A model generated the notes under the pieces. That model was not told the DNA's origin and searched no databases. It saw only the letters and a list, made by a program, of their open reading frames with translations. The position numbers and the translations under genes were made by a program. Positions 92-39,425 of a stretch of DNA of 39,605 nucleotides are shown here, in pieces (positions within the stretch are counted from its first letter, which is position 1; each line of letters begins with the position of its first letter). The stretch is taken from assembly GCA_964600085.1 (NCBI GenBank), contig CAZRHU010000003.1, forward strand, positions 1-39,605, read 5' to 3'. The stretch is from an uncultured Candidatus Saccharibacteria bacterium (lineage in GTDB: Bacteria; Patescibacteriota; Minisyncoccia; JACQLN01; CAZPCT01).

Positions 92-1987
92 ATGTATATA
101 ATTACTGCTATTCCTATTACTCCCCTTCCTCGTCCAAACGAGCAGATTTTTAGTTATTTTTTTGACAAAAATCTATCCAGAGGAACTTTAGCTGTGGCTC
201 CGTTGGGAAATCGCAGTGTCAAAGTCTTGGTTTTAAATAGTGAATCTCTAGAGAAGAAGAAGCTAGACATTAGAGGAGCTTCATATAAATTAAAAGGTTT
301 AAAGAAGGTTTTTAATGATAATAGGGTTTTAGGTGACGAAGATATAGAGTTAGCGCTCTGGCTTTCTGAAAAACTCTTTTCTCCTCTAGGTCTTGTTTTA
401 AAGTCGTTCTTACCAAAGTATCTTTTAGAAAAAGAAGATTTTTCTTACGAGGTCTCGCCAACCTTTACTCTGAAAAATAATTTTTCCTTTAGGTATGTAC
501 AAGGAAAGAGTCGTTTTGAAAAATATAGAAAGATTATTCAAGAACGTCTGGATAAAAAAGAACAAATCTTGGTGCTCTTTCCAAAGACGGCTGAAGCTAA
601 AGTTTTTTTTAATTCTTTAGACGATAAAATTAAAAAAGAGACACTTCTCTATAGCAGTTCTTTTACGCCTAAGAAAGATATTGAGATGAGGAAAAAAATA
701 TTATCTAAATCTATCAATTTAATAATAGGCACTAGATCTTCAATTTTTCTCTCTATTCCAGAGCTATCACTTATCATTTTAGAAGATGAGAAAGATGTTT
801 CTCATAAGTCCTGGGATCAGTATCCAGGATACGATACCAGGTCTATATCTCTCCGAATAGCGAAAAAGAGGGGTTTAACTTTAATTTGGGGCAGTTACAC
901 CCCGAGCGTTAAGGCCACCAGTATTTTAAAAAAAGAAGATAGAGAATCTCTTTTTGAGAAAACTTTTCCTAAGAAGATAGAGGTCGTTGATATGAAAAAA
1001 GAGATAAAAGAAAAAAACACCTCTCCTCTTTCCAGGTTAATTAAAGATAAAGTGGCTTCTTTAGAAAATTCAAAAAAACAAGCCCTCTTTTTAGTTAATC
1101 GCAGAGGCAGATACACGGTTGTTTTATGCAGAGATTGTGGATATGTCTTAAAGTGTTCTTCTTGCGACTCTTCACTTATAACCATAGAAGAAGATGATCA
1201 GAAGACCGACTTGTTTTGCCGAAGTTGTAGTAAAAGAGAAGAGGGTGTTGATCTCTGTCCTTCTTGCGGTTCTTATAAATTTAAAAAAATAGGGGCTGGA
1301 ACCAAAAGAATTATAGAAGAAATTAAAAAACTTTCTTTTACCGCTTCCGTTGCTGTTTTAGATAGTGACTCTATAAAAGATAGAAGCCAACAACAAGAAG
1401 TATTGAAAAATTTTAAAGAAGGTAAAATTAAAATTTTGGTCGGCACTCAGATGGTGGCGCGCCCCGAGTTAATGCCTCAAGTTGGTGTTATCGGTATTAT
1501 TAATATAGAGAGTCTTTTATTTCTACCTAATTACAATAGTGAAGAGGATGTTTATAGTGTAATCTCTTCTTTACAGAATATTTGTTCTGATGAAATTATT
1601 TGGCAAACTTACAACACTGAACATAGAATTGTGCAGTTTTTACAGAGCGGTAGATACGGCAATTTTCTAAGAGAAGAACTAAAACAGCGTCAAGCTTTTA
1701 AGTGGCCTCCTTTCTGGGAGGTTGTAAAACTAAACTTTGTAGATAAAAATAAAAAGAGAGGTGAAGAAGGTGTCAGTTTTGTCTATAGTAAACTTAATCA
1801 AGGTCTTTCCCAAGGAGTAGAGGTTTTTGAGCCCTTTCAATCTGAATCAAGTAAAGTAAGAGGCGGTTTTTCTTGGAGTATAATTTTAAAGATAGATAAG
1901 AATCTAAGCTTAGAAAAAAGAAATCAACTCCTCTCCCTAATTCCTTCTAAGTGGAGGATTGAAGTTGACCCAGTTAGTATCTTATAG
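92..1987 (+). CDS. priA: Primosomal protein N' (PriA)-like protein with degenerate helicase motifs
   Basis: PriA-type Cys-rich zinc region (CRDCGYVLKCSSCDS...CRSCS...CPSCGS). GTQMVA and KWPPF blocks are colinear with PriA. Motif I reads YVQGKS, motif II LEDEK, and the motif VI arginines are absent. Confidence 0.75.
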   Translation: MYIITAIPITPLPRPNEQIFSYFFDKNLSRGTLAVAPLGNRSVKVLVLNSESLEKKKLDIRGASYKLKGLKKVFNDNRVLGDEDIELALWLSEKLFSPLGLVLKSFLPKYLLEKEDFSYEVSPTFTLKNNFSFRYVQGKSRFEKYRKIIQERLDKKEQILVLFPKTAEAKVFFNSLDDKIKKETLLYSSSFTPKKDIEMRKKILSKSINLIIGTRSSIFLSIPELSLIILEDEKDVSHKSWDQYPGYDTRSISLRIAKKRGLTLIWGSYTPSVKATSILKKEDRESLFEKTFPKKIEVVDMKKEIKEKNTSPLSRLIKDKVASLENSKKQALFLVNRRGRYTVVLCRDCGYVLKCSSCDSSLITIEEDDQKTDLFCRSCSKREEGVDLCPSCGSYKFKKIGAGTKRIIEEIKKLSFTASVAVLDSDSIKDRSQQQEVLKNFKEGKIKILVGTQMVARPELMPQVGVIGIINIESLLFLPNYNSEEDVYSVISSLQNICSDEIIWQTYNTEHRIVQFLQSGRYGNFLREELKQRQAFKWPPFWEVVKLNFVDKNKKRGEEGVSFVYSKLNQGLSQGVEVFEPFQSESSKVRGGFSWSIILKIDKNLSLEKRNQLLSLIPSKWRIEVDPVSIL

Positions 1988-1996
1988 TTAATTTAT

Positions 1997-2455
1997 ATGA
2001 TTTTAGATATCGTAACAGGAAAAGACAATAAAATACTAAGAAGCAAATCTAAGCCCATAGATGACGTTGCTGATCCTAAAATTCAAAAACTTATAAAAGA
2101 TATGCAAGAAACTTTAGAGAATAGTGAGAATGGTATTGGCTTAGCTGCTCCTCAAATCGGTAGAAATCTCCAGGTTTTTGTGATAGATCCCGAGTTTAGT
2201 AAAGACGGTCATACTGTTTTTATAAACCCTGAAATAACTAAAGTTTCCAGAAAAAAGGTTGTTTTAGATGAAGGTTGTTTAAGCGTGCCCGGTAAGTGGG
2301 ATGAGTTAGGGAGACCGGAAAAAGCGACTATAAAGGCAATAAATGAGAATGGAAAGAAATTCAAAGTTCGCGGAAAAGGCATCTTAGCTCGGCTGTTCTG
2401 TCACGAGGTCGATCACTTAAAGGGAGTTTTATTTATTGATCACCTTAATCATTAA
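1997..2455 (+). CDS. def: Peptide deformylase
   Basis: All three Def motifs are present: GIGLAAPQIG, EGCLSVPG and HEVDHL. It lies directly upstream of fmt, the classic def-fmt pair. Confidence 0.95.
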   Translation: MILDIVTGKDNKILRSKSKPIDDVADPKIQKLIKDMQETLENSENGIGLAAPQIGRNLQVFVIDPEFSKDGHTVFINPEITKVSRKKVVLDEGCLSVPGKWDELGRPEKATIKAINENGKKFKVRGKGILARLFCHEVDHLKGVLFIDHLNH

Positions 2456-2509
2456 AACATTAAAACATTAAAACAAATTTATTTCGGTGTTATTATGCTT
2501 TAATTTTTT

Positions 2510-3433
2510 ATGAAGATTATTTTTTTTGGAACATCAGAGTTTGCGGTGCCGATATTAGAAGCGCTAAATAATAGTGATAATTTTGATATTGGCTTGGTTG
2601 TTGTTGAACCGTCAAAGCCGGCTGGTAGAAAAAAAGAATTACTTTTATCTCCTGTTCATAGTCTTTGTCGAGAAGAAGATCTAGACTTGTTTCCACCAAA
2701 AACTCTTAAAGATTCAGAAGTTCAGAAGATTATAAAAGACGTTAAAGCAGATATTTTTATTGTTGTTTCTTACGGCAAGATAATTCCCTCTCAAGTTTTT
2801 AATTTACCTAAACACAAGACGATTAACGTTCACCCTTCTTTATTACCAAAGTATCGTGGACCTTCTCCAATCCAGTCCACTCTATTAAGTGGAGATAGAG
2901 AAACGGGTGTTACATTAATTCAAATAGATGAAGAAGTTGATCGCGGACCCATAGTTTCTCAAGAAAAAATAAATATCAAAGATAACGACACATTCTTAGA
3001 TCTTGAAGATAAGCTATCACAGTTAGGAGCCGAGATGATTCTTCGTGATTTACCGAAGTATGTTTCCGGAGGTATGGGGCTAATTAAACAAAACCATAAA
3101 GAGGCAACCTTTACAGAAAAAATTAAAAAAGAAGACGGAGAGATAGATTGGAACAACTCGGCGCAAGATATATATAATAAATGGCGTGCTTTTATTAGGT
3201 GGCCCGGCGTTTACACTGTAATAAATAATACTCGCTTTAATCTAAAGAAGGTAAGAATTGCTAAGAATATTAGAGGGAAAGTTAAAGGTGAAATGTTTAG
3301 TGAAGACAAAAGATTGTTTAGGGGTTGTGCTGATGGAGTTATAGAGATAGAAGAAATACAACCCGAAGGAAAGAGCGCGATGGATGCAACCTCCTTTATA
3401 AATGGTTATAAGAACTTTTTATTAGGTTCTTGA
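2510..3433 (+). CDS. fmt: Methionyl-tRNA formyltransferase
   Basis: N-terminal MKIIFFGTSEFAVP and the HPSLLPKYRGPSPIQ formyltransferase motif. Protein is 307 aa and sits in def-fmt synteny. Confidence 0.9.
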   Translation: MKIIFFGTSEFAVPILEALNNSDNFDIGLVVVEPSKPAGRKKELLLSPVHSLCREEDLDLFPPKTLKDSEVQKIIKDVKADIFIVVSYGKIIPSQVFNLPKHKTINVHPSLLPKYRGPSPIQSTLLSGDRETGVTLIQIDEEVDRGPIVSQEKINIKDNDTFLDLEDKLSQLGAEMILRDLPKYVSGGMGLIKQNHKEATFTEKIKKEDGEIDWNNSAQDIYNKWRAFIRWPGVYTVINNTRFNLKKVRIAKNIRGKVKGEMFSEDKRLFRGCADGVIEIEEIQPEGKSAMDATSFINGYKNFLLGS

Positions 3434-3451
3434 TGAGATATAATAGGCCTA

Positions 3452-4618
3452 ATGAAGCTTTTGAATAAAAGTAAAATTTTATTTTTATTAGTTGCTATTA
3501 TTATCTTGATACTAGTAACTTTTTTTATTTTAGCTGGTGAAAGTTTTGATCTGGAAAATAGCGAAATTTATTCCTTTTTCGTTAATAGAAATGATATTTC
3601 TTTAGGAGAAAAACTAAAAAATCCCCCCTCCTCTTTGCGTGGTATATATATGACCAGCTGGACAGCGGGAACCCCTTCTCTCTTTAATAACTTATTAAAT
3701 CTTATTGAGGAAACAGAATTAAACGCAGTAGTTTTAGACGTTAAAGATTATAGTGGCTATCTCTCTTTTAGAACTAGTATTCCTTTAGCTGAAGAAATAA
3801 AAGCTCACGACGAATTAAGGATAGTTGATATTCAAAAAGTAATTAGAGATCTACACGATAGAAATATTTATGTTATAGGCCGTCTGCAGGTCTTTCAAGA
3901 TCCTCTTTTGGCTCTGGCGAGACCAGATTTAGCCGTTAGAGATTCTGTGACTAGGGAGCCCTGGAGAGATCATAAAAATCTATCTTGGTTAGATCCAGCC
4001 GGTCAAGAGGTTCGTCAGTATGCTTTAGAAATAGCAAGAGAAGCAGATAGATACGGCTTTGACGAGATAAATTTTGATTATGTTCGATTTCCATCTGATG
4101 GAAATTTAGAAAGAATGGTTTTTCCTTTTTGGGATAATGTTACGCCAAGATATGAAGTCGTTCGTTCTTTTTTTCAATTCTTAAGAGAAGAAACCTTGAA
4201 AGAAGATATAAAAATATCAGCTGATATTTTTGGTATGGCCTCCTGGAGAGCTATGGACTTAGATTATGATGCTTACATCGGCCAGAGAATGACTGACGCT
4301 CTCCCCTACTTTGACGCTGTAATGCCTATGATATATCCTTCTCACTTTGCTCCCGGAACCGTTGGTTTTGAAAATCCCGCTGACCACCCCTACGAGATCG
4401 TCTATGAATCTCTCAAGAGAACAAAACAGTTGATGGCTACTACCACAAATTGTGTTGCCAGTATAAGACCTTGGATTCAGGACTTTGATATAGGTGCTAA
4501 TTATGGCCCCGAAGAGGTTAGAGCGCAGATAAGAGCTACTTACGACAACGGCATTAAAGGGTGGGTGCTCTGGAACGCCAGTAATAAATATACCCGCGAA
4601 GCCCTACTAGAAAATTAA
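3452..4618 (+). CDS. Membrane-anchored putative glycoside hydrolase (DUF4015/GHL-type TIM barrel)
   Basis: N-terminal TM helix. Blocks LNAVVLDVKD, FDEINFDYVRFPSDG and PMIYPSHF...HPYEIV resemble the DUF4015 putative glycosyl hydrolase family, recalled from memory and not searched. Confidence 0.55.
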   Translation: MKLLNKSKILFLLVAIIILILVTFFILAGESFDLENSEIYSFFVNRNDISLGEKLKNPPSSLRGIYMTSWTAGTPSLFNNLLNLIEETELNAVVLDVKDYSGYLSFRTSIPLAEEIKAHDELRIVDIQKVIRDLHDRNIYVIGRLQVFQDPLLALARPDLAVRDSVTREPWRDHKNLSWLDPAGQEVRQYALEIAREADRYGFDEINFDYVRFPSDGNLERMVFPFWDNVTPRYEVVRSFFQFLREETLKEDIKISADIFGMASWRAMDLDYDAYIGQRMTDALPYFDAVMPMIYPSHFAPGTVGFENPADHPYEIVYESLKRTKQLMATTTNCVASIRPWIQDFDIGANYGPEEVRAQIRATYDNGIKGWVLWNASNKYTREALLEN

Positions 4619-4680
4619 CTCTTTAAAGTATTAAAAAAACGAGAATATGAAAACATTATCTGTATTATACATAACACTAG

Positions 4681-4715
4681 ATACTTAATACTTTATACTT
4701 TATACTTGATACTAT
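4681..4715 (+). repeat. Five tandem heptamers ATACTTN ending 3 nt before the dnaX start codon
   Basis: Read directly: atactta atacttt atacttt atacttg atactat, then tct ATG. Confidence 0.9.
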
Positions 4716-4718
4716 TCT

Positions 4719-6140
4719 ATGAATAACCTCGTTTTATACAGAAAATATAGACCACAAAAATTTAGTGATGTTGTTGGCCAAGAGCACGTGGTTAAAACAA
4801 TTCAAAATTCTCTAAAGAGAGATAAGATTTCGCATGCTTATCTCTTTACCGGTCCTCGAGGCACAGGTAAGACGACAATTGCTCGTCTTTTGGCCAAGAG
4901 TTTAAATTGTGAAGATAGAAACGAATTTTCTGAGCCCTGTAATAAATGTCAGAGGTGTGTTGAAGCTAGTAGAGGACAAGATATTGATTTAATAGAAATT
5001 GATGCTGCTTCTAATAGAGGAATTGACGAGATAAGAGATCTGAAAGAGGGTGTTCGTTTCGGAGCTTCTCGTGGAAAATATAAAGTATATCTAATAGATG
5101 AAATTCATATGATGACCAGAGATGCTTTTAATGCTTTCCTTAAAACCTTGGAAGAGCCCCCTCCTTTTGTTGTTTTTATACTGGCTACTACCGAACCTCA
5201 TAAGCTCTTACCAACCGTTATATCCAGAACTCAGCGGTTTGACTTCAGGCTTTTAAATTTAAAAGAGATAGAAGAGCGTCTCAAAAAAATTCTTTCTGCT
5301 GAAAAGGTAAAAGTTAAAGAAGAACAGGCGATTAAGCTTATAGCTCAAGAAGCCAACGGTTCTATTAGGGATGCTGAGAGTTTATTGGGGCAGGTCTTAG
5401 CTTTTAGTAAAGACGAGTTTGGGGTTGATGATATAGAGGAGATTCTAGGGTTGGTTAGTTACTCGAGGTTGAAAAAATTTGTCGATCTCTTAATAAAAAA
5501 AGATAGAGCAGGAAGTTTAATTTATATACAAGAAACCGCTGAAGCGGGACAAGACTTTAATCAATTTCTCTCTTCTCTTATAGGTTATCTCCGTTATCTT
5601 CTCTTAATTGGCTTAGATGAAGAGTTGGCGAAGAGATTTAAAAAAGAAATAAATGAAGAGGATTTTAAAATCTTAAAGAGTCAATCCGGGGAAGTTGATT
5701 CGTTAAAGATTGGAGAGTGGATGAGTGTTTTTACCGAGGCAAAAGAAGATTTAGAAAGCTATCCCCTCCCCCAGATAACTCTTGAAGTTGCTGTTGTAGA
5801 AGTTTTAAAAAACTCAATAAGAGACAGAGAAGAAACCCCTGAGAAGATAGAAAATTCAGAAGAAGACACCTCTGAAGTTAAAGATGCTTCTGTGAAGACC
5901 TTATTAGATAAGTGGGAAGATATAGCCGACGCTCTAAAACCACACAACCACTCTTTGTCAGCTTTCGTAAAAGCTGTTACTCCTCAAAAAATTGATGAGG
6001 ACGGCGTTTTAACTATTTCAACAAAGTTTTCTTTTCATAAAGAGCGTATTCAGGAAAGAAAAAATCGTTTAGCGTTAGAGGATGCTATTAAAAAGGCGCT
6101 CGGTAAAAAAGTGTCGGTTCGTTGCATCTTAAAGAAATAA
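4719..6140 (+). CDS. dnaX: DNA polymerase III subunit gamma/tau
   Basis: Clamp-loader N-terminus (YRKYRPQKFSDVVGQEHV), Walker A GPRGTGKTT, a Cys zinc module (CEDRNEFSEPCNKCQRC), and the SRTQRF sensor motif. Confidence 0.92.
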   Translation: MNNLVLYRKYRPQKFSDVVGQEHVVKTIQNSLKRDKISHAYLFTGPRGTGKTTIARLLAKSLNCEDRNEFSEPCNKCQRCVEASRGQDIDLIEIDAASNRGIDEIRDLKEGVRFGASRGKYKVYLIDEIHMMTRDAFNAFLKTLEEPPPFVVFILATTEPHKLLPTVISRTQRFDFRLLNLKEIEERLKKILSAEKVKVKEEQAIKLIAQEANGSIRDAESLLGQVLAFSKDEFGVDDIEEILGLVSYSRLKKFVDLLIKKDRAGSLIYIQETAEAGQDFNQFLSSLIGYLRYLLLIGLDEELAKRFKKEINEEDFKILKSQSGEVDSLKIGEWMSVFTEAKEDLESYPLPQITLEVAVVEVLKNSIRDREETPEKIENSEEDTSEVKDASVKTLLDKWEDIADALKPHNHSLSAFVKAVTPQKIDEDGVLTISTKFSFHKERIQERKNRLALEDAIKKALGKKVSVRCILKK

Positions 6141-6163
6141 AAAATGGCGAGCGTTAGCTCGTC
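6137..6163 (-). terminator. Small hairpin plus T-run downstream of tRNA-Gln
   Basis: 7-bp stem at 6146-6152/6157-6163 (one G-U pair) with a GTTA loop. On the minus strand it is followed by ATTTTTTAT. Confidence 0.45.
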
Positions 6164-6178
6164 AAACCGATCTATTTA

Positions 6179-6252
6179 TGGCTGCCGGGCCAGGGCTCGA
6201 ACCTGGATTCCATGGACCAAAACCATGTGTCCTACCATTAGACGACCCGGCA
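6179..6252 (-). tRNA. tRNA-Gln (anticodon UUG) with encoded CCA
   Basis: The reverse complement TGCCGGGTCGTCTAATGGTAGGACACATGGTTTTGGTCCATGGAATCCAGGTTCGAGCCCTGGCCCGGCAGCCA folds by hand into a full cloverleaf. It has a 7-bp acceptor stem with U1-A72, discriminator G, anticodon loop UUUUGGU and T-loop TTCGAGC. Confidence 0.93.
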
Positions 6253-6340
6253 ATGTTTAAAGTTTATTGAGGATAGTTAACTTATCCTTATAAGTCATAA
6301 CATCCTACCATTAGCCTGCCCGGCCAGGGACGACCCGGCA
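6253..6340 (-). mobile_element. 88-nt miniature (internally deleted) copy of the GIY-YIG element, abutting tRNA nucleotide 1
   Basis: It consists of the 3' 37 nt and the 5' 51 nt of the full unit joined together. By eye it is identical to 6636-6723. Confidence 0.8.
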
Positions 6341-6635
6341 ATGTTTAAAGTTTATTGAGGATAGTTAACTTATCCTTTGATCCTTTGTAGCTTTTTAAAT
6401 ACTTTTCTCTTTCTCGTGCTTTAACTTTTGAATCAAAAGTTTCAATATAGACTATTTCAAATGGTATGCGATGTTTTGTGGATTTAACCAATCCTTTATT
6501 ATGATATTCTAAACGTTTAATAACATTCTTAGACATACCTGTATAATATCTATTATCTTTTTTGCTTCTTAAAATATAAACAAAATAAGTCATAACATCC
6601 TACCATTAGCCTGCCCGGCCAGGGACGACCCGGCA
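6341..6635 (-). mobile_element. Full 295-nt GIY-YIG element unit (pseudo-tRNA head, ORF, TAAACAT tail)
   Basis: Its ends are the same as those of the two 88-nt units. The length difference is 207 nt, i.e. 69 codons. Confidence 0.75.
6345..6593 (-). CDS. Small GIY-YIG (URI-domain, COG2827-like) nuclease family protein
   Basis: The 82-aa protein starts MTYFVYILRSKKDNRYYTGMS, giving the GIY and YIG equivalents. It also has the RLEYHN block and a conserved Glu region EREKYLK. Confidence 0.85.
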   Translation of the reverse strand: MTYFVYILRSKKDNRYYTGMSKNVIKRLEYHNKGLVKSTKHRIPFEIVYIETFDSKVKAREREKYLKSYKGSKDKLTILNKL

Positions 6636-6723
6636 ATGTTTAAAGTTTATTGAGGATAGTTAACTTATCCTTATAAGTCATAACATCCTACCATTAGCCT
6701 GCCCGGCCAGGGACGACCCGGCA
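6636..6723 (-). mobile_element. Second 88-nt miniature copy of the GIY-YIG element
   Basis: Same sequence as 6253-6340 by eye. It is followed at 6724-6730 by ATGTTTA, which equals the first 7 nt of a unit. Confidence 0.8.
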
Positions 6724-6794
6724 ATGTTTATTTTTTACCATATTTTGTTTATTTTTCCAACAACCGAAGCGTAACCTCAAGAGTTGCGATTTAA

Positions 6795-6829
6795 CTGAAT
6801 AGAAAGGGCGCCCTTGTAGGGGCGCCCTT
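6795..6829 (-). terminator. Intrinsic terminator of the GC-rich lipoprotein-like gene
   Basis: 10-bp GC-rich stem AAGGGCGCCC (6804-6813) / GGGCGCCCTT (6820-6829). On the minus strand it is followed by TTCTATTCA. Confidence 0.65.
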
Positions 6830-6849
6830 GGGTTGAAGGTGCTGTGGTG

Positions 6850-7212
6850 TCAGTCGAAGTCTCTGTCTCGAAACTCGACGCTACCGGGACGATCTTTGCA
6901 CGTTCTGACTTCGCGAATATGGGATGTTCCCAACCGAAGATTTTTAGCAAAGACGGGAATTCTCCCACACTCCCTATCCTCGTATCTAGAATATTCATAC
7001 ACACGAATCCGAGGATTGTACCGGTGACTACTCCCGGATTCCAGGATAGGATTTTGAACATTGCCACCGATAGTTATCTTTAGATCGTCCACAGAGAGAT
7101 TGTGAACGTCAACAGGGATGTTCTCCTCATCAGGCCCAACGATGTCGTCGAGATCGAGGAATTCACATCCTCCGCAGAGAAGGGTGAGTGCCAGAAAGAA
7201 GAATTTATACAT
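6850..7212 (-). CDS. Small secreted or lipoprotein-like protein of unknown function, in a GC-rich island
   Basis: Signal-peptide-like N-terminus MYKFFFLALTLLCGGCEF. AGGAGG sits 6 nt upstream of the ATG. The gene has its own consensus promoter and terminator. A hand count of 6841-6900 gives 33/60 G+C. Confidence 0.6.
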   Translation of the reverse strand: MYKFFFLALTLLCGGCEFLDLDDIVGPDEENIPVDVHNLSVDDLKITIGGNVQNPILESGSSHRYNPRIRVYEYSRYEDRECGRIPVFAKNLRLGTSHIREVRTCKDRPGSVEFRDRDFD

Positions 7213-7257
7213 CGGTAACCTCCTGTATCAAAGGAACTAATATTTTCAACTATCTTT

Positions 7258-7286
7258 ATTATATTCTATTTTTTATATATTGTCAA
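7258..7286 (-). promoter_or_regulatory. Consensus sigma70-type promoter TTGACA-17-TATAAT
   Basis: On the minus strand, TTGACA is at 7286-7281, followed by a 17-nt spacer and TATAAT at 7263-7258. This lies about 45 nt upstream of the ATG at 7212. Confidence 0.65.
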
Positions 7287-7318
7287 CCTCCTAAAGCGCA
7301 ACCTCGGAGGTTGTGCCT

Positions 7319-10688: not shown

Positions 10689-10726
10689 ATCAATATTATA
10701 ACATAAAGTTATGTTATAATATTGAT
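10689..10726. promoter_or_regulatory. Perfect 17-bp inverted repeat carrying two back-to-back extended -10 elements (TGTTATAAT)
   Basis: ATCAATATTATAACATA (10689-10705), a 4-nt spacer AAGT, then TATGTTATAATATTGAT (10710-10726). It fills the gap between the divergent start codons at 10688 and 10728. Confidence 0.6.
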
Positions 10727-22298: not shown

Positions 22299-23360
22299 TT
22301 ATTCCTCTGGCGTTGTTTTATTTTCGACATTAACAACTACGTCCTTAAATTTATCTATCTCTTCTAAGACAATACCCGTTCCTCTAACCACTGTGGTTAG
22401 GGGGTCCTCTGTTATTCTTACCGAAATTCCTGTCTCGGTGCTTATTAATTCATCGAGTCCGGAGAGCATACTTCCTCCACCGGTAAGAATTATCCCTCTT
22501 TTCATAACGTCTGAAATTAACTCGGGAGGCGTCTCTTCTATCGTTTCTTTAATGTTACTAATGAGGTTGTTTATGGACTTTTCTAAAGCTTTTCTAACCT
22601 CTTCAGAGGTTAGTTTTATTTCTTTTGGAAGACCGGTTACTAAATCCCTACCCCTTACAGAAATTTCTTTCTTCTCAGCCTCTTTTACAGCGCTTCCCAC
22701 TTCTATCTTAGCTTTTTCAGCACTTCTCTCACCCAATAAAACATTAGAGTTTTCTCTAACTGACTGAATTATATCATCATTAAACTTATCGCCGGCCATC
22801 CTAAGACTCTTAAAAGTTACCATTCCTCCCAAAGATATAATAGCTATCTCCGTTGTTCCTCCGCCAATGTCAACAACCATATTTCCCAGAGCTTCAAATA
22901 TTGGTAACCGAGCTCCTATACAGGCAGCCATCGGTTCTTCTATTAGGTAAACTTCCCGAGCTCCGGCATTTAAAGCTGCTTCCTCCACGGCTTTTTTCTC
23001 TACTTCAGTTATTCCCGACGGAATACCGATAACAACCCTGGGGCGAGGTAATAAGTAACTTCTTTCTTCTTGAATTTCTTTAAAAAAGTAACGTAACATC
23101 TGCTCGGTAACATCAAAGTCCGAAATAACACCCGACCTTAGAGGTTTTATGGCTGTTATGTGGCTCGGCGTTTTTCCTATCATTTTTTTAGCCTCTCTTC
23201 CTATGGCTAAAAGTTGTCCTGTTTTTTTATTTACAGCCACCACAGATGGTTGATCAATAACTATTCCTCTTTCTTTAACATAAACCAAGGTATTAGAAGT
23301 TCCTAAATCAACCCCTACATCTTTACCAAACCGACCAAGAAAAGAGTCTAAAAACTTCAT
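22299..23360 (-). CDS. mreB: Actin-like rod-shape protein MreB
   Basis: Contains DLGTSNTLVY, VVDIGGGTTE and ILTGGGSML, and heads the mreBCD-mrdA cluster. Confidence 0.92.
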   Translation of the reverse strand: MKFLDSFLGRFGKDVGVDLGTSNTLVYVKERGIVIDQPSVVAVNKKTGQLLAIGREAKKMIGKTPSHITAIKPLRSGVISDFDVTEQMLRYFFKEIQEERSYLLPRPRVVIGIPSGITEVEKKAVEEAALNAGAREVYLIEEPMAACIGARLPIFEALGNMVVDIGGGTTEIAIISLGGMVTFKSLRMAGDKFNDDIIQSVRENSNVLLGERSAEKAKIEVGSAVKEAEKKEISVRGRDLVTGLPKEIKLTSEEVRKALEKSINNLISNIKETIEETPPELISDVMKRGIILTGGGSMLSGLDELISTETGISVRITEDPLTTVVRGTGIVLEEIDKFKDVVVNVENKTTPEE

Positions 23361-24758: not shown

Positions 24759-25826
24759 TTATAAAAACCTTATTATATCTTGCCAAGTGACCAAAATCAT
24801 TAAAACTATCAACAAGGCAAAACCGATTGTGTTTATAGTGTTTTCTATGCTTTTCTTGACCGGACTTCCCTTTATTTTCTCAATAAATAAGAATAAGATT
24901 CTTCCTCCGTCCAGAGCTGGAAAAGGAAGGATGTTTAAGATAGCTAAGTTTATAGAGAGAAAAGCTACAAAATTTAATAGATATGTAAATCCTAACCGAA
25001 TTGCATCACCGGTTAGAGTGGCTATACCTACTGGACCAGCTATATGAGAAAGCTCAACTCCCCCGGAAAAGAGCTTGCCCACAAACATAATTATTGCCAA
25101 CGTCATATTTATAGCTATCTTAAAACCATCCCACGGCGCTCTCCACCAGGGTGATGCCTGCTTGCCAATTTTACCCACAAATACGCCGACAGCCCCTTCG
25201 CCTTCAGGGGGATTTTGACGAGGTGTAATATTTAAAGATAAATCTTCACCTCCTCGTCTTACATTTAAAAAAAGCTCTTCTCCCTCGTTTTTCTTTATAA
25301 TATCTCGAAACTGCGATGCTCTATCCATCTCTATAACATTCTCGCCAATGAAAACACTCACCACTTCATCTCCCGCTTTTAGACCAGCTTCAGTAGCTGG
25401 AGTCTCTGGCATAACTTGAATTATTTGGAGAGGAAGATTTTTATAACCCTCTGAAGATTCGTCTAAAAACTTAACCTGCCCCAAACCGCTAACTATAGTC
25501 AGTAAGACCACCGCTAGTAAAAAATTCATTACAACACCCGCTACTAAAACAATAGCTCTCCGACTAATTGACAGAGATCCAAAGCTACCCGGTTTTTTTA
25601 TCTCACTCTCGTCTTCTCCCAGTATCTTTACGAAGCCACCAAAGGGAATTATGTTTATTGAGTACTTTGTCTCTCCTCTGCGCCAACTAAACAATGTGGG
25701 AGGAAAACCAATTCCAAACTCTTCTACCTTCGCTCCTGCTTTTTTAGCGGTCCAAAAATGTCCCAGTTCGTGAACCAGGACCAACACTGATAAAACAATT
25801 ATAAAACCTATAAAAGTTGTCATCAC
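24759..25826 (-). CDS. rseP: RseP/RIP site-2 zinc metalloprotease (the track start at 25826 is GTG; there is an ATG at 25823)
   Basis: HELGHF (HExxH), a PDZ-like middle region (AGLKAGDEVVSV) and LNILPFPALDGG. Confidence 0.9.
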   Translation of the reverse strand: MMTTFIGFIIVLSVLVLVHELGHFWTAKKAGAKVEEFGIGFPPTLFSWRRGETKYSINIIPFGGFVKILGEDESEIKKPGSFGSLSISRRAIVLVAGVVMNFLLAVVLLTIVSGLGQVKFLDESSEGYKNLPLQIIQVMPETPATEAGLKAGDEVVSVFIGENVIEMDRASQFRDIIKKNEGEELFLNVRRGGEDLSLNITPRQNPPEGEGAVGVFVGKIGKQASPWWRAPWDGFKIAINMTLAIIMFVGKLFSGGVELSHIAGPVGIATLTGDAIRLGFTYLLNFVAFLSINLAILNILPFPALDGGRILFLFIEKIKGSPVKKSIENTINTIGFALLIVLMILVTWQDIIRFL

Positions 25827-25877
25827 CGCTTTATTATAACCAATTTTTAACTATTTTACACCTCTTTTTTACTACTA

Positions 25878-25915
25878 TTGACAAGATTGTATCAATATGT
25901 TAATATCAATATAAT
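25878..25915 (+). promoter_or_regulatory. Two overlapping near-consensus sigma70 promoters (TTGACA-17-TAATAT and TTGTAT-17-TATAAT)
   Basis: TTGACA is at 25878-25883 and TAATAT at 25901-25906. TTGTAT is at 25887-25892 and TATAAT at 25910-25915. Confidence 0.6.
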
Positions 25916-25951
25916 CTAAGTTCCTTTTTTTCTTCTTCAAGAGAGGTCTAT

Positions 25952-26227
25952 ATGCGCACCGCTATTCTGCGACCCGTCTTCAAGCGACTGGTCCGTCCAT
26001 TTCGACGTCAACAAAAAAACAGGTCTTCTCAGTCCAGCGTAGCCCGGATCCACTCTCTGGCTCACCCCCCGGATTCTTCAGTCGCTCCCCGCAGGACTGG
26101 CGGATCTCGTCGAGGCAACCTTCCCAAACCAAACGCTTCTAAACAGCGTCGTCGGGACAACCAGAAGATGAAACGGACCCGTCTTCGTCGAGGGCAAAAC
26201 CCTCGCACCGGCCTTCCGAAGAAGTAG
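25952..26227 (+). CDS. 91-aa extremely Arg/Lys-rich ORF in a GC-rich island (could instead be a structured RNA)
   Basis: GAGAGG lies 5 nt upstream of the ATG, and this is the only long ORF across the island. Hand counts give 30/60 G+C for 25981-26040 and 40/60 for 26041-26100. The unit is antiparallel to both neighbouring genes. Confidence 0.35.
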   Translation: MRTAILRPVFKRLVRPFRRQQKNRSSQSSVARIHSLAHPPDSSVAPRRTGGSRRGNLPKPNASKQRRRDNQKMKRTRLRRGQNPRTGLPKK

Positions 26228-26236
26228 TCACAATAG

Positions 26237-26280
26237 AGAGCCCTGGAAGTAATAAAACACTTCTAGGGCTCTTTTCGTCT
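26237..26280 (+). terminator. Intrinsic terminator of the GC-rich plus-strand unit
   Basis: 14-bp stem AGAGCCCTGGAAGT (26237-26250) / ACTTCTAGGGCTCT (26259-26272), with one G-U pair. It is followed by TTTCGTCT. Confidence 0.65.
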
Positions 26281-26290
26281 GTGTAAAAAA

Positions 26291-26875
26291 TCAAATTGTG
26301 GATAGTTCTTTTTCTTTAGCGGAAACCACCTCGTTTATTGCGTTGTCGTAGTCCTTAAAAAGTTTTTCCAACCTTTCCTTAGCTCTAAAAAAATCGTCTT
26401 CGCCAATATCACCCTTGTCTTTTTGGTTTTTCAGCTCTTTCATCTCATCGTCTCTTAACTGTCTCAGTTGCACTCTTGTTTCTTCTGCTTTCTTATTAGT
26501 AAATTTAATAAACTCCTCTCTTCTCTCTTCTGATAAAGGAGGAAAAGGAATTCTCACCTTATCTCCATCAACTACTGCCTGAAGGCCATTCTGACTCTTA
26601 GTTATAGCAGAGGATATCGGCTCTAGAGCTTTCTTGTCCCACGGACTCACTGTTAGGGTCTGGGGACCGAGGGAAGATATAGATCCCAAAGATTTTACCG
26701 GTTGCTTTACCCCAAAATAATCAACCATAATCTCCTCAATAATAGAAGGATTGGCACGGCCGGTCCTAATCTTTCGCAACTCTTTTTTTAAGTTATCTAA
26801 CCTTTCATTTATACTTTTTTCTACTTCTGGAAAACTTTTACTCATATTTTTAAAATTTATCTTTTTATAATACAA
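26291..26875 (-). CDS. frr: Ribosome recycling factor (probable start at the ATG at 26845)
   Basis: LRKIRTGRANPSIIEEIMVDYFG, RIPFPPLSEERREE and a C-terminal helical region, all typical of RRF. Confidence 0.9.
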   Translation of the reverse strand: MYYKKINFKNMSKSFPEVEKSINERLDNLKKELRKIRTGRANPSIIEEIMVDYFGVKQPVKSLGSISSLGPQTLTVSPWDKKALEPISSAITKSQNGLQAVVDGDKVRIPFPPLSEERREEFIKFTNKKAEETRVQLRQLRDDEMKELKNQKDKGDIGEDDFFRAKERLEKLFKDYDNAINEVVSAKEKELSTI

Positions 26876-26884
26876 ATAATAACA

Positions 26885-27754
26885 TTAAAGAAAGAGATTT
26901 TCTAACCAAAGTCTTTTATTTACATTCGTAAAACTTAAAATTTCTCTTGTTTCTTTTATTTTCTTAATTAAATTTTTATAAAAATCTGCTCTATCTGAGT
27001 TTTCTAACATTTTAAGTCTTGAGGCCAACAACCAACTTTCTAAAATTTCTTCTAAAGATTCTTCTTTCAATATTTCTTGAATTAGGTTGAATTTTTGCGT
27101 TAAGGATGCGTCTAGGATTTTAAAGAATAAGTTAAAATTTTTCTTCGACTCTTCTACTAACTTATTCTCTGGATTTTTATTATACAAGATCATAAGTTCA
27201 GATCTGCCCGCTAACCAAGATAAATCTTCTTCAACTACTTTAAAGCCTCTTTCTTGAGCAAGTTTTTTCATCTCTTTCTTATTAAGGGGTTGGAACTTTA
27301 AAACCACTGAACGAGAAGTGATCGTCTTCGGCAAAGAAGCACTCCTGCTGGTTAAGAGTATAATAATAGTATCTGTCTTTGGTTCCTCTAAAATTTTTAA
27401 AATAGAATTCGACGCTTCTTTAGACATTAGATGAGCATCTTTAATCAAGACCAGTTTCCTGCTTAATTCAACAGAACTTAAGCTTATAAATTTTTTTAAT
27501 CTTCGAGTCTGTTCTATTGATATATTTCTTTTTTCTTCTTTTAAACTAACTTCTAAAACATCGGGGTGTCGTTCTTTGTTCTCTGCTTCCGGGCTCATCT
27601 TCCAAAAGAAAGAACAGGCAACCTTTTCTTTTCCTATGTGCTTTGGCCCAGAAAAGATAAATGTATTGGGAATTTTATTATTCTTTAAAAGACCATTTAG
27701 ATACTTGATTTGTTTTTTATGTCCAGTCATATCAACTTTATCTATTTTTAGCAA
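26885..27754 (-). CDS. holB: DNA polymerase III delta' subunit
   Basis: AAA+ clamp-loader layout: FIFSGPKHIGK, LIKDAHLMSKEASNSILKILEEP and TSRS. The protein is 289 aa. Confidence 0.7.
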   Translation of the reverse strand: MLKIDKVDMTGHKKQIKYLNGLLKNNKIPNTFIFSGPKHIGKEKVACSFFWKMSPEAENKERHPDVLEVSLKEEKRNISIEQTRRLKKFISLSSVELSRKLVLIKDAHLMSKEASNSILKILEEPKTDTIIILLTSRSASLPKTITSRSVVLKFQPLNKKEMKKLAQERGFKVVEEDLSWLAGRSELMILYNKNPENKLVEESKKNFNLFFKILDASLTQKFNLIQEILKEESLEEILESWLLASRLKMLENSDRADFYKNLIKKIKETREILSFTNVNKRLWLENLFL

Positions 27755-28745
27755 AAAGAGCTCTTTTATATAACTTTAGATTCTCTAAAGCTATACCCGC
27801 TCCTTTAACAACACAAATTAAAGGATTATCAGCCACATAACAAGGAACACCTGTTTCTTGAGTAATTAGTTTGTCTATTCCCTCAAGAAGGGCTGTCCCC
27901 CCGGCTAAAACCATACCCTTATCCATAATATCAGCCGATAGTTCCGGCGGTGTTTCTTGTAAAACTTTTTTTATTGTCTTTATAATTTCTAACATTATCT
28001 CTTCTATAGCTTTAGGAATTTCATTGGAGTGAAGTTCTATATTTTTTGGAAGACCGGCAACTAAATCTCTTCCTCTAATCTCTAGAACACTCTCTTCTTT
28101 CTCTTTTACAGCAGAACCAATAGCTATTTTAATCTCTTCAGCTGTTCTCTGGCCGACTGCTAAATTGTGTTCTTTATGAATATAATTTTGGATAGCGCCA
28201 TCTATCTTTCTTCCACCAACTCTGCTAGAAGCCCAGGCTACTATACCGCCTAAAGATATAACAGCCACTTCAGTTGTTCCTCCTCCGATATCTATAATCA
28301 TATGGCCCGAGGGCTCATTTATAGGTACTCCGGCCCCTATAGCCGCTAAAACCGGCTCTTTGGCTACATAAACAGCCTTTGAGCCGGCTTTCATAACCGC
28401 CTCAACCACTGCTCTATGCTCTGTAGAGGTAATTCCGGCAGGAACAGACACCATCACCTCTGGCCTCAAAATTCTTATCTTACCCATAGCTTTCTTAATA
28501 AAGTACCTGATTAAAGCTTCTGTTACTCTGTAATCGGCTATAACACCCTCTTTTATGGGTTCTACGGCGGCAATGCTTTCCGGAGTTCTTCCTATCATCT
28601 CTCGAGCATCTTCTCCAACGGCAACAACCTTATTATCATCCAAACTCACAGCCACCACAGAAGGTTCATTTATTACAATTCCCTTTTGAGGTATAAAAAC
28701 CAGGGTATTAACTGTTCCTAAATCTATGCCTATTTTTCTAACCAT
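27738..28745 (-). CDS. Second MreB/Mbl-type actin homologue
   Basis: Contains IDLGTVNTLVF, IIDIGGGTTEVAV and VLAGGTALL. It overlaps the holB start by 17 nt. Confidence 0.88.
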   Translation of the reverse strand: MVRKIGIDLGTVNTLVFIPQKGIVINEPSVVAVSLDDNKVVAVGEDAREMIGRTPESIAAVEPIKEGVIADYRVTEALIRYFIKKAMGKIRILRPEVMVSVPAGITSTEHRAVVEAVMKAGSKAVYVAKEPVLAAIGAGVPINEPSGHMIIDIGGGTTEVAVISLGGIVAWASSRVGGRKIDGAIQNYIHKEHNLAVGQRTAEEIKIAIGSAVKEKEESVLEIRGRDLVAGLPKNIELHSNEIPKAIEEIMLEIIKTIKKVLQETPPELSADIMDKGMVLAGGTALLEGIDKLITQETGVPCYVADNPLICVVKGAGIALENLKLYKRALFAKNR

Positions 28746-28866: not shown

Positions 28867-30150
28867 GTGACTAAAAGAAAAAGAAGATTATTTTTTTGGA
28901 TAGCGGTAGCTATCTTTGTTTTGGTGGCTCCCTTGATAATAAGTTATGCAGGAGGTTATCGTTACGATTTTCAAAAAAATGAGATAACTCAAACAGGAGC
29001 TATTGTTATAGATTCTAAACCAGAGAAAGCAAAAATAATATTAAACGAGAAAGAGTTAAAAAAGGAAACCCCTGGAGCTATAAAAGGACTCTTTCCATCT
29101 AGAAACTATGAGGTGTCTCTTCAAAAAGATGGTTATCAGTCGTGGCAAAAAGTTTTAAGCGTGGAACCTGAAAAAATTGTCTCGCTTGATAATATATTTT
29201 TGTTTCCTAAAGAATTGTCGCCAAGACCGATAATAGAAAACAGGAGATTATCTTTTTTTTCAATTTCACCAGAAGAAAAACTTGTACTTTTTATAGATGA
29301 AGCTGAACAAATTAACATCTTTAAGAAAGAAGAGAACACCATAATTCCCATAGAGTTTAATGATTTTATAAAAACTACTTCTCTAGATAATGTTTTATGG
29401 TCTAAAAATTTACTCGTATTCTCACGCAAAACAAAAATTGGAAATTTTTGGTATCTCTTCAACACTTCTCAAAAAAGACTGGTTAATCTGACTTCTCTTT
29501 ACGAGAGAGATCTTATTTTGAGAACCTCATCTACTAAACCTCTTTCAAGCATCTTTAATCCGGAAGAGGTGAAGTTTATAGAAGAAGATAAAACTCTACT
29601 CTTTAGAAACGGGGAAAATATTATATCTTTAAATATTGAAGATAGAAAGATGAACTTGATTTTAGATGAGGCGCCTATAGCAATAGAAGTTGAGGATAAT
29701 AACTTTTTTACAGTAGATAAAAAGTTAAAATTAAAAAAATACAATCTAGAAGGCTCTATTTTAGAAGAGTGGCCAAATTTAAAATTTACACCTAAAAAAA
29801 TGAGAATATCTCCGGACGGCAAGAAGATGCTTTATTTTCATAACTACGCTGTGGGAGTCCTGTGGTTTAAAGATGTTAAGGGAGGAGAAGAAAGAAAGAA
29901 AGGCGAGACAGATCTAATTTTTCAATCGCCAAAACTAATAAAGAATGTTTGGTGGCACTACTCTTCAGAGTATTTAATAGTGAATAACAGTGAATTAATG
30001 AGCGTTGAAATAGATGGAAGAGGAGGTGTTTACAATAAAGCAAAGTGGCTTAAGAAAGATATAATTCAAATTATCTATAATTCAGACAAAAAAAGTATTT
30101 GGCTTCTAAAAAAAGATGGCACTCTCTGGCGCCATCTTGAAAAATACTAA
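28867..30150 (+). CDS. Bitopic PEGA-domain protein with a beta-rich C-terminal region (GTG start)
   Basis: TM helix followed by a PEGA-like block (IDSKPEKAKIILNEKELKKETPGAIKGL...YEVSLQKDGYQSW). A TolB/propeller-like ISPDGKKMLYF motif lies further downstream. Confidence 0.5.
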   Translation: MTKRKRRLFFWIAVAIFVLVAPLIISYAGGYRYDFQKNEITQTGAIVIDSKPEKAKIILNEKELKKETPGAIKGLFPSRNYEVSLQKDGYQSWQKVLSVEPEKIVSLDNIFLFPKELSPRPIIENRRLSFFSISPEEKLVLFIDEAEQINIFKKEENTIIPIEFNDFIKTTSLDNVLWSKNLLVFSRKTKIGNFWYLFNTSQKRLVNLTSLYERDLILRTSSTKPLSSIFNPEEVKFIEEDKTLLFRNGENIISLNIEDRKMNLILDEAPIAIEVEDNNFFTVDKKLKLKKYNLEGSILEEWPNLKFTPKKMRISPDGKKMLYFHNYAVGVLWFKDVKGGEERKKGETDLIFQSPKLIKNVWWHYSSEYLIVNNSELMSVEIDGRGGVYNKAKWLKKDIIQIIYNSDKKSIWLLKKDGTLWRHLEKY

Positions 30151-38299: not shown

Positions 38300-39397
38300 T
38301 TATGAAATAATCCCTCCGCCCAATAATTCGTCTTTATAGTAGAAAACAACCGACTGACCGGAAGTAATAGCTCTTACCGGTTTTTTAAATGTAACACGCC
38401 AAGTGTTATTTTTTAAGGGTAATAAAACAGCCGGCACTGCTTTTTGCCTGTATCTTATCTGAGCAGTTACGTCTGTTTCCTTCTTTAAAACCTCGTTTAC
38501 AAAGCTTACATCTTCGGCAATTAAATCTTTTGAGAAGAGTTTATTTTCTTGAGACGGTGGAGCCACAATTAAAGTATTTGACTTCTCTTTTTTATCTACA
38601 ACATAGTAAGGGCCCGTTCCCCCCACCTCTATACCTCGTCTCTGACCGATTGTATAAAAAGATAACCCCTTATGCTTTCCTATTACTCGCCCCGACACAG
38701 TTAAGATTAATCCCTCTTCTGCCTCTATACGCTCTCTCAAAAAATCCTGAACATCTATAGGACCAATAAAACAAACTCCTTGAGAATCTTTCTTTTCTGC
38801 TACTGGTATTTTTCTCTCTCGAGCATATTCTCTAACCTCTTCTTTGGTTTTAAATTCCCCAATAGGAAAAAGTGTCTTCTTTAAATGTTTTTGTTTTAAA
38901 GTCCACAAAAAATAACTCTGATCTTTATTAGTATCACTACCCCTTAAAAGTTTATATTTTGAAAATTGAAAATTACCTGCCCGTTCCGCAAGCGGGAAAA
39001 ATGAAAACGATCGTCTGCGACGAGCGTGGTGTCCTGTCGCTACCATATTAGCTCCTTCTGATATAGCTTTATCAAAAAACAAGCCGAATTTTATTTCTTT
39101 GTTACACATTATATCAGGATTAGGAGTTTTTCCTTTTTTATATTCAGATATCATATAGTCCACCACTTTCTTTTTATAATCATCCGTAAAATCCCAGTCC
39201 TTAAAAGGGACGTTTAAGTGAGCGCAAACACGTATAACATCTCGCCTTTCTTCTCTCCAAGGGCACGGCCTACCCTCTGGAGACCAGGTCTTCATATATA
39301 CGCCGACAATATTATAACCCTGATCTTTTAGTATAGATACGGCCACTGATGAATCTACACCACCCGACATTGCTGTGTAAACTTTCTTCTTATCCAT
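38300..39397 (-). CDS. mnmA: tRNA 2-thiouridine(34) synthase MnmA
   Basis: PP-loop AMSGGVDSSVA, the ATGHHAR block, KDQSYFL and the C-terminal barrel motif GQSVVFY. Confidence 0.9.
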   Translation of the reverse strand: MDKKKVYTAMSGGVDSSVAVSILKDQGYNIVGVYMKTWSPEGRPCPWREERRDVIRVCAHLNVPFKDWDFTDDYKKKVVDYMISEYKKGKTPNPDIMCNKEIKFGLFFDKAISEGANMVATGHHARRRRSFSFFPLAERAGNFQFSKYKLLRGSDTNKDQSYFLWTLKQKHLKKTLFPIGEFKTKEEVREYARERKIPVAEKKDSQGVCFIGPIDVQDFLRERIEAEEGLILTVSGRVIGKHKGLSFYTIGQRRGIEVGGTGPYYVVDKKEKSNTLIVAPPSQENKLFSKDLIAEDVSFVNEVLKKETDVTAQIRYRQKAVPAVLLPLKNNTWRVTFKKPVRAITSGQSVVFYYKDELLGGGIIS

Positions 39398-39405
39398 AGA
39401 TAAAT

Positions 39406-39414
39406 ATTATAACA
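39406..39414 (-). promoter_or_regulatory. Extended -10 element TGTTATAAT 8 nt upstream of the mnmA ATG
   Basis: The plus strand reads ATTATAACA at 39406-39414. The 9-mer is identical to the two in the 10689-10726 palindrome. Confidence 0.5.
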
Positions 39415-39425
39415 AAAAACAAACA

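Follow-up and report, generated by a model that had tools for sequence, protein, structure and literature searches.

Structured RNAs are strongly over-represented in the long GC-rich intergenic regions of AT-rich genomes (Meyer et al. 2009, PMC2704228; Klein, Misulovin & Eddy 2002, as cited there). Here we analyse a GC-rich intergenic unit in a 39,605-nucleotide stretch from an uncultured Candidatus Saccharibacteria bacterium (assembly GCA_964600085.1, contig CAZRHU010000003.1, positions 1–39,605 of the forward strand; this whole stretch is referred to as the window). The unit lies on the plus strand at 25878–26280, between the minus-strand genes frr and rseP, and carries an open reading frame (ORF) of 91 codons. 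It is common to find orphan small ORFs in variable slots. The predicted product of this one is a hyper-basic protein, which we take to recall the Arg-rich-motif RNA binders (phage lambda N, HIV Rev/Tat) and the protamine-like polycations. The unit had been singled out in an earlier reading of the letters (the original prediction), which weighed a protein against an unclassified RNA. The anatomy of the unit, its orphan status, its absence from relatives and its coding-like statistics are established here, and we read it, with a probability of about 0.48, as an orphan small gene that was probably acquired horizontally and encodes a polycationic protein.

Anatomy of the unit

The genome of the window is AT-rich, with a mean GC of 0.36, and the unit sits within a row of minus-strand genes of conserved order (mreB, holB, frr, rseP and proS). 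It occupies a gap of 464 nt without a called gene, bounded by the stop of frr (26291) and the start of rseP (25826), in a genome whose intergenic spacers are mostly shorter than 120 nt. GC is 0.56 over 26000–26199, and the GC maximum of the whole window is a 276-nt stretch from 25954 (0.58, z = 4.8), about equal to the tRNA-Gln of the window (0.59) and above every coding stretch in it. The GC-rich body noticed in the original prediction is therefore the top GC peak of the window. The peak starts 2 nt past the ATG, and the GC block and the ORF coincide within a few bases (Table 1).

Every sequence feature listed in the original prediction turned out to be real and could be located, and the promoter-like, Shine-Dalgarno (SD)-like, ORF and terminator-like elements all line up in register, forming a self-contained plus-strand unit antiparallel to its neighbours, as proposed. 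The upstream promoter-like site has a scan score of 10/12 and is one of only 7 intergenic sites of at least 10/12 on the two strands of the window. A TG at 25898–25899 upstream of TAATAT provides an extended −10 (TGnTAATAT), from which a transcript is predicted to start near 25913. Two overlapping near-consensus promoters had been claimed; both are present, but the second combines a perfect −10 (TATAAT) with a weak −35 of 3/6 matches. The sequence TATCAATAT occurs twice, 14 nt apart (25890–25898 and 25904–25912), spanning the −10 region of the unit promoter; this repeat could be operator-like, or mere AT-rich chance.

The SD-like element, given earlier as GAGAGG, reads AGAGAGG (25940–25946) and is separated by a 5-nt spacer from the ATG at 25952, the first start codon within the open frame. 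At the other end, the 14-bp-stem terminator that had been described is found with arms at 26237–26250 and 26259–26272 (14 pairs including one G-T, then TTTTCGTCTG), 9 nt past the ORF stop and 18 nt past the convergent frr stop. It stands out against shuffles on both strands (z −4 to −5.7) and probably terminates both the unit and the frr transcripts. The terminator scan did not list the hairpin at 26237–26272, an omission that may come from the extension of the stem into the T run. The GC peak, the ORF and the terminator hairpin are all above chance expectation.

Table 1. Features of the unit, its flanking genes and a second cassette-like gene, with coordinates in the window
Feature	Position	Strand	Basis
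Sigma-70-type promoter-like site, TTGACA (25878–83), 17 nt, TAATAT (25901–06)	25878–25906	plus	promoter scan, bases verified
Overlapping alternative promoter-like site, TTGTAT-17-TATAAT	25887–25915	plus	read from sequence; below scan threshold
Leader, about 40 nt, AT-rich and pyrimidine-rich	25913–25951	plus	sequence
91-codon ORF, ATG to TAG (26225–26227)	25952–26227	plus	ORF list, shuffles, composition tests
In-frame internal repeat, SRRGN-LPKP (26105–26131) / LRRGQNPRTGLPKK (26183–26224)	26105–26224	plus	read from sequence
Hairpin, 14-bp stem (extendable to 16 bp), 8-nt loop, UUUU on plus strand	26237–26276	both	inverted-repeat search, minimum-energy fold, shuffles
rseP (Peptidase_M50/PDZ protein)	24759–25826	minus	flanking gene
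Probable rseP promoter, facing away from the unit	25827–25870	minus	inferred from sequence only
frr (RRF)	26291–26845	minus	flanking gene, convergent with the unit
Accessory ORF, 120 aa, lipoprotein-like, signal-peptide-like N-terminus (MYKFFFLALTLLCGGC)	6850–7212 (cassette 6795–7286)	minus	sequence, profile searches

Coding statistics and predicted product

An ATG-started ORF of at least 91 codons appears in 0.44% of dinucleotide shuffles on the strand of the unit; when any start codon and both strands are admitted, the share is 2.8%. The combination of start codon, ribosome-binding site and stop goes beyond chance, as expected of a coding gene. Base composition differs by codon position (chi-square 14.4, p 0.025). 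The value falls inside the spread of host coding segments, whose median is 18, and exceeds the mean of shuffles (6), with the qualification that three-base periodicity alone cannot tell which strand codes. The ORF frame specifies 28 basic residues, compared with 15.9 ± 3.1 in shuffles (P 2e-4), and no shuffle reached its net charge of +26. The remaining five frames hold 8–24 basic residues each, and the basic excess is thus specific to the ORF frame.

The 91-residue translation is identical to that of the original prediction, whose estimate of roughly 30 Arg plus Lys is close to the 28 counted. The predicted product has a mass of 10.6 kDa and a pI of 12.0, and contains 20 Arg (22%), 8 Lys, 2 Asp and no Glu. 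Two 15-residue windows have net charges of +8 (residues 66–80) and +7 (residues 71–85), and an Arg-dense segment lies at residues 63–80 (KQRRRDNQKMKRTRLRRG); a short segment of this type is found in Arg-rich-motif and protamine-like binders, as a loose criterion. A search of the product for a hydrophobic stretch or transmembrane segment found none (GRAVY −1.46), which agrees with the lack of a hydrophobic core stated earlier and leaves the toxic peptide that had also been considered without support. A protein so charged (+26), lacking Glu as well as any acidic or hydrophobic core, could hardly act except by binding polyanions. AlphaFold2, run on the single sequence, gave two helices (residues 4–37 and 62–80) without a fold (pTM 0.26), so that fold-search matches of the model would be meaningless; the predicted shape is a pair of basic helices with a Ser/Pro-rich linker between them and no globular fold.

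The ORF also contains an in-frame internal repeat, whose two copies differ by a 15-nt in-frame indel. Three aligned codons differ solely at synonymous third positions (GGC/GGG, CCC/CCG and AAA/AAG). This is a weak hint in favour of coding, the alignment having been spotted post hoc.

A second gene of the window has the same build. The minus-strand accessory gene at 6850–7212 looks foreign (GC 0.47), has no Pfam or PADLOC match, and is equipped with a perfect 12/12 promoter (TTGACA-17-TATAAT), an AGGAGG SD and a GC-rich terminator. It is the only other gene in the window with a textbook promoter/SD layout, and the distance from the −35 to the ATG is 74 nt in both. Among the 34 host genes only about 3 have an SD-like motif near the start, mostly badly spaced. 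Two accessory cassettes of the same build make a translated gene more plausible. A 9-mer common to the leaders of both cassette-like genes (AGTTCCTTT) is not enriched in the window and was taken as coincidence.

From these letters we infer that the unit is transcribed and translated, that its product binds nucleic acid, and that it came from elsewhere. In the mechanism we propose, the strong sigma-70-type promoter (TTGACA, 17 nt, TGnTAATAT), which faces away from the rseP promoter, would start a transcript near 25913, and a leader of about 40 nt would supply the AGAGAGG ribosome-binding site. A ribosome would then read the 91 codons (25952–26227) into a 10.6-kDa polycation, and transcription would end at the hairpin (26237–26272) shared with the convergent frr. 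The product would exert its effect by binding RNA, DNA or ribosomes electrostatically, in an Arg-rich-motif or protamine-like manner.

Homologues, relatives and origin

The original prediction had called the unit an orphan, and this is borne out in that the databases searched yielded neither an RNA or protein family nor a DNA relative. The ORF has no match in Pfam or NCBIfam at E ≤ 10, none among PHROGs or PADLOC profiles (no phage or anti-phage defence family), and none among PDB sequences; chromatin and ribosomal basic proteins (HU/IHF, Hc1, bL34, bL36 and similar) likewise gave no Pfam, NCBIfam or PDB match. Searches with tblastn and blastn brought up no relative of the unit: tblastn of the ORF against phages and plasmids gave no match, and blastn of the unit against them gave trivial AT-rich matches only. 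Peptide-pattern scans of metagenome, viral and genome contigs yielded, among the matches listed, only ones anchored on the HSLAHPPD pattern (at least 600 matches each in the metagenome and genome scans).

The five other frames, concatenated, had no match at E ≤ 10. Several apparent matches were set aside. A 49-aa piece of another frame resembled WD40_RLD/RCC1 in Pfam at 16.7 bits only, and the resemblance was gone on extension; matches of other frames in PDB (a ketosynthase motif, a PLL lectin) had E ≥ 0.6, at noise level, and those of tblastn against plasmids E ≥ 3. An exact 20-mer match in a viral contig of 66% GC did not extend beyond the match and is attributed to chance.

A first scan of genome contigs with frr found no orthologous locus; frr homologues of 58–67% identity then led to contigs of relatives with the same gene order. 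In three of these (L004, L011 and L012) rseP follows frr almost directly, and in three others (L001, L002 and L013) a GH1 glycosidase gene stands between the two. Blastn of the unit against all the loci of relatives gave no match, and no second copy was found in the window or in these loci. A remnant of the GH1 gene, or of another gene in the relatives' loci, was considered and rejected, as none has similarity to the unit. Since the two genes are either almost directly adjacent or separated by GH1 in relatives, the frr–rseP junction is a variable slot whose insert is specific to the lineage of the window. Relatives have further such slots: holB and frr are separated by a BNR/Sortilin-like gene, and rseP and proS by unrelated genes.

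The nearest frr relatives (L001, L004, L005 and L011; 58–66% identical in frr) have 45–48% GC, compared with 36% in the window. This indicates that the lineage shifted strongly towards AT, and that the 58% block was not left over from an ancestor richer in GC. Taken together, a GC of 58% in a 36% GC genome, the use of CGN for 18 of the 20 Arg codons, and an SD in an SD-poor host suggest that the DNA was probably acquired fairly recently. Mobile-element hallmarks (terminal inverted repeats, target-site duplication, extra copies) were sought, and only the terminator hairpin and chance-level short repeats turned up. An independent Logan assembly of the same strain (L015, from SRR7048227), reached through its identical IF-1 protein, matches the window at 99.95% identity over 11.4 kb and shows no difference over the whole 464-nt gap, so the insert is no mis-assembly.

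Alternative explanations

Codon usage, strand asymmetry and the database record of the frame all weigh against a translated gene. None of its 20 Arg codons is AGA, which accounts for 56% in the host; an index resembling the codon adaptation index stands at 0.40, compared with 0.62–0.74 for host genes, and GC at third codon positions at 0.53, compared with 0.30. GC skew on the coding strand is negative (−0.21), in contrast to positive values in each of the 34 host genes (+0.03 to +0.29; mean +0.175, s.d. 0.066), and C makes up 0.45 of codon position 1, against 0.07–0.17 in host genes. The host-like codon usage and strand asymmetry expected of a coding gene are thus lacking. Arg/Pro/Ser-rich products without a hydrophobic core are typical of shadow ORFs in GC-rich DNA, and a real gene of the relative L001 contains, off-frame, a 91-aa ORF about as rich in basic residues. 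An amino-acid-composition classifier (cross-validated area under the curve 0.83) scores the ORF frame at 0.14, the least protein-like of the six, on a scale where the genuine ribosomal protein L34 reaches only 0.20 and no frame exceeds 0.53. The ORF is uncalled in the gene sets of both this contig and L015. An exhaustive phmmer search over 1.84 billion representative proteins found no homologue, and a word-indexed search of 5.8 billion clusters did not return even the ORF itself, which means that no gene caller accepted it. The lack of a fold in the single-sequence model counts on the same side, and the only other copy of the unit, that in L015, is identical and hence carries no substitution signal.

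Such features would suit an inert relic of foreign or degraded DNA in which the 91-codon frame is a shadow ORF, an explanation that adds a third option to the protein and RNA of the original prediction and that we hold to be unlikely, though far from negligible. The block would then be the leftover of an acquired gene, possibly one of the minus strand, with 25827–25951 serving as the promoter region of a leaderless rseP and the hairpin as the frr terminator; a hairpin directly follows frr in the relatives L005 and L012 too. A junction that is empty in some relatives and filled by GH1 in others is in keeping with this account, as are the off-frame-like composition of the ORF and its rejection by gene callers. 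The minus strand, opposite to the ORF strand, carries the host-like and gene-like asymmetry (GC skew +0.20, a G-rich first codon position of 0.46), and its frames 0 and 2 are interrupted by one stop each inside the block. Supposing that minus frame 0 used to be the sense frame, the open plus frame would be unsurprising and its periodicity inherited, because real genes of 52–64% GC leave the codon-aligned antisense frame open across 92 codons in 24% of windows. With minus frame 2 as sense the case is different, the corresponding antisense frame being open in just 0.9% of such windows. What makes a relic doubtful is that a block still at 58% GC has barely decayed, and its parent family should be detectable, yet no frame of either strand has a homologue at E ≤ 10 or a credible Pfam or PDB match, and neither a GH1 remnant nor a match to any gene of the relatives' loci is present. 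It would also require several coincidences on the plus strand (a 10/12 promoter with TG, the SD spacing, a first ATG exactly on the edge of the GC block, a stop shortly ahead of the hairpin, and a U run on the plus side), an excess of basic residues beyond the expectation from dinucleotide composition, and 276 nt of useless DNA, which is unusual among spacers this short.

The RNA alternatives divide into known and novel families. A length of about 300–365 nt lies within the range of RNase P RNA and tmRNA, and the original prediction had found no hallmarks of RNase P, tmRNA, SRP or 6S. Searches concur: Rfam at gathering thresholds finds only the tRNA-Gln (6182–6252) in the whole window, a relaxed search of 25750–26400 at E ≤ 10 finds no RNase P RNA, tmRNA, SRP RNA or 6S RNA and only sub-threshold noise, and ARAGORN finds no tmRNA. 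The best relaxed match is His_leader (RF00514; 25.5 bits, E 0.059), and a His-leader-type attenuator was rejected, as the score is about half the gathering score of 49, much of the alignment falls on the terminator hairpin, and the plus strand downstream holds only the antisense of frr and no biosynthetic operon. A divergent member of a known housekeeping family, or such an attenuator, is effectively refuted.

A novel, lineage-specific non-coding or dual-function RNA of about 300–365 nt, its GC content due to RNA structure and its ORF incidental or secondary, is improbable in our estimate. A promoter and a terminator with no downstream plus-strand gene, and a GC content close to that of tRNA-Gln, are what such an RNA would have, and third-position GC so far above the host value implies that something besides amino-acid sequence keeps GC high. 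The original prediction invoked the enrichment of GC-rich islands for RNAs, a legitimate prior (PMC2704228) that rests mostly on known families, which are excluded here. Folding offers little more. The transcript including the terminator folds at z = −3.6, but once this is removed the body reaches only −1.56 or −1.19 for the plus strand (−0.34 or −0.27 for the minus strand) relative to shuffles, no better than a control segment of rseP coding sequence (−1.19), in a test of low power in which tRNA-Gln itself scores only −1.76. Sliding 100-nt windows over 25900–26200 give z −0.6 to +1.7, with only those on the terminator below −4, and the minimum-energy structure of the body makes up 0.0002 of the ensemble. 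The body shows neither an energy below shuffles nor a defined structure, the generic marks of a structured RNA. Pairing between the leader and the 3′ end of the body has an energy of −15.6 kcal/mol, compared with −8.5 ± 2.3 in shuffles (P 0.007); it was rejected as a specific feature since several other purine-rich sites pair with the leader just as well. The small repeats noted earlier are present with some correction. The direct repeat is 11 nt long rather than 10 (GACCCGTCTTC, at 25971 and 26176), an exact repeat of that length occurs in 2.1% of shuffles, and its copies lie in different reading frames, so it is no protein-level feature. The 8-bp long-range complement (AGCGACTG at 25983, CAGTCGCT at 26079) and the CGAGGG-CAAAA-CCCTCG hairpin (at 26189) exist as described, but their combined structure is not above chance. 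An incidental ATG ORF that spans the whole body and is preceded by an SD would be improbable, and no homologues turned up from which covariation could be read. We regard as more improbable still the specific case of a functional RNA of about 300 nt, or of a dual RNA regulator and hyper-arginine-protein mRNA, confined to one CPR-like lineage, in which selection on the RNA, not recent transfer, would keep the GC of synonymous sites.

The original prediction had treated the protein and the RNA as equal options; the tests tilt towards the ORF, with known RNAs excluded, no excess folding, and both periodicity and a frame-specific charge. A small gene for a polycationic protein would account for how the unit is laid out, for the charge bias of its frame and for its likeness to the second cassette; the odd composition would then come from a recent foreign origin and an Arg-rich product. 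At a little under even odds, such a gene is our tentative account. Coding is favoured, short of proof.

Other features of the window

The rseP gene has a TATAAT (25838 to 25833, minus strand) 6 nt ahead of its GTG start, and on this ground it looks leaderless. Several host genes have a TATAAT 6–9 nt upstream of the start (rseP, 3452, 10722 and 38300–39397), with such sites at, for example, 25827–25838, 39398–39415, 3436–3451 and 10705–10721, a pattern that suggests widespread leaderless mRNAs in this organism.

A repeat of about 114 nt is present in three copies (6241, 6536 and 6624; 73–97% identical) beside the tRNA-Gln (6182–6252, minus strand) and begins inside the 5′ end of this tRNA. An 82-aa GIY-YIG ORF (6345–6593, minus strand) lies between the copies, and the region 6182–6737 looks like the scar of repeated insertion of a homing endonuclease or mobile element at the tRNA. 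Cumulative GC skew climbs to about 6.2 kb and then falls, and gene orientations converge in the same place (about 6100–7300), with plus-strand genes at 92–6140 and mostly minus-strand genes beyond. This pattern of skew and orientation would fit a replication terminus at which foreign-looking DNA has accumulated. Two full-length MreB/Mbl paralogues are found within 6 kb of each other (22299–23360 and 27738–28745), the second beside a divergent gene for a PEGA-domain protein (28867–30150) in an arrangement that is kept in relatives.

Discussion

If the ORF is real, it specifies a protein without a relative among some 15 billion predicted proteins and an unusually arginine-rich one for a bacterium (22% Arg, +26), expressed from a canonical promoter/SD cassette in a genome mostly without SD. 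It would then be a small, clean case of a streamlined CPR-like genome wiring up a foreign small gene, and would show what gene callers miss. Either way, the unit calls for caution in RNA scans based on GC islands, as this island is at least as well explained by coding or by a foreign-DNA origin. The finding opens no long-standing question, and with a single sequence the function of the unit is beyond computational reach and no family membership can be claimed. Its extreme composition, canonical cassette in an SD-poor genome and lack of relatives would make it a reasonable target given transcript or ribosome data.

The predicted product shares with bL34, bL36 and similar basic ribosomal proteins a small size, a high basicity and a location beside a translation gene (frr); it differs in having no Pfam or NCBIfam match, in being written in host-rare codons, in contrast to highly expressed ribosomal proteins, and in being absent from relatives. 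By analogy it is also comparable to the Arg-rich-motif and protamine-like proteins, being small, very basic, predicted to be disordered or helical, and endowed with an Arg-dense stretch, but it has no sequence or profile similarity to them, and no phage context, antitermination target or cognate hairpin accompanies it.

As a piece of DNA, the unit resembles the GC-island RNAs in being long, intergenic, far above the genome in GC and equal to the local tRNA, and departs from them in having no RNA family or excess folding and in having an ATG ORF with an SD that fills the island exactly. With shadow ORFs in GC-rich DNA it has in common an Arg/Pro/Ser-rich translation, a C-rich codon position 1, a lack of homologues and an off-frame-like classifier score; unlike these, it has no identifiable sense gene opposite and possesses correctly placed expression signals of its own. 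Many traits recall the ORFan small genes in acquired DNA of streamlined or CPR-like bacteria: fewer than 100 aa, no homologues, an atypical composition, a position in a variable slot of a syntenic locus, a promoter and terminator of its own, and omission by gene callers. Among such genes the unit would be extreme (22% Arg, +26, no Glu), with a reversed coding-strand GC skew and an expression that is predicted only.

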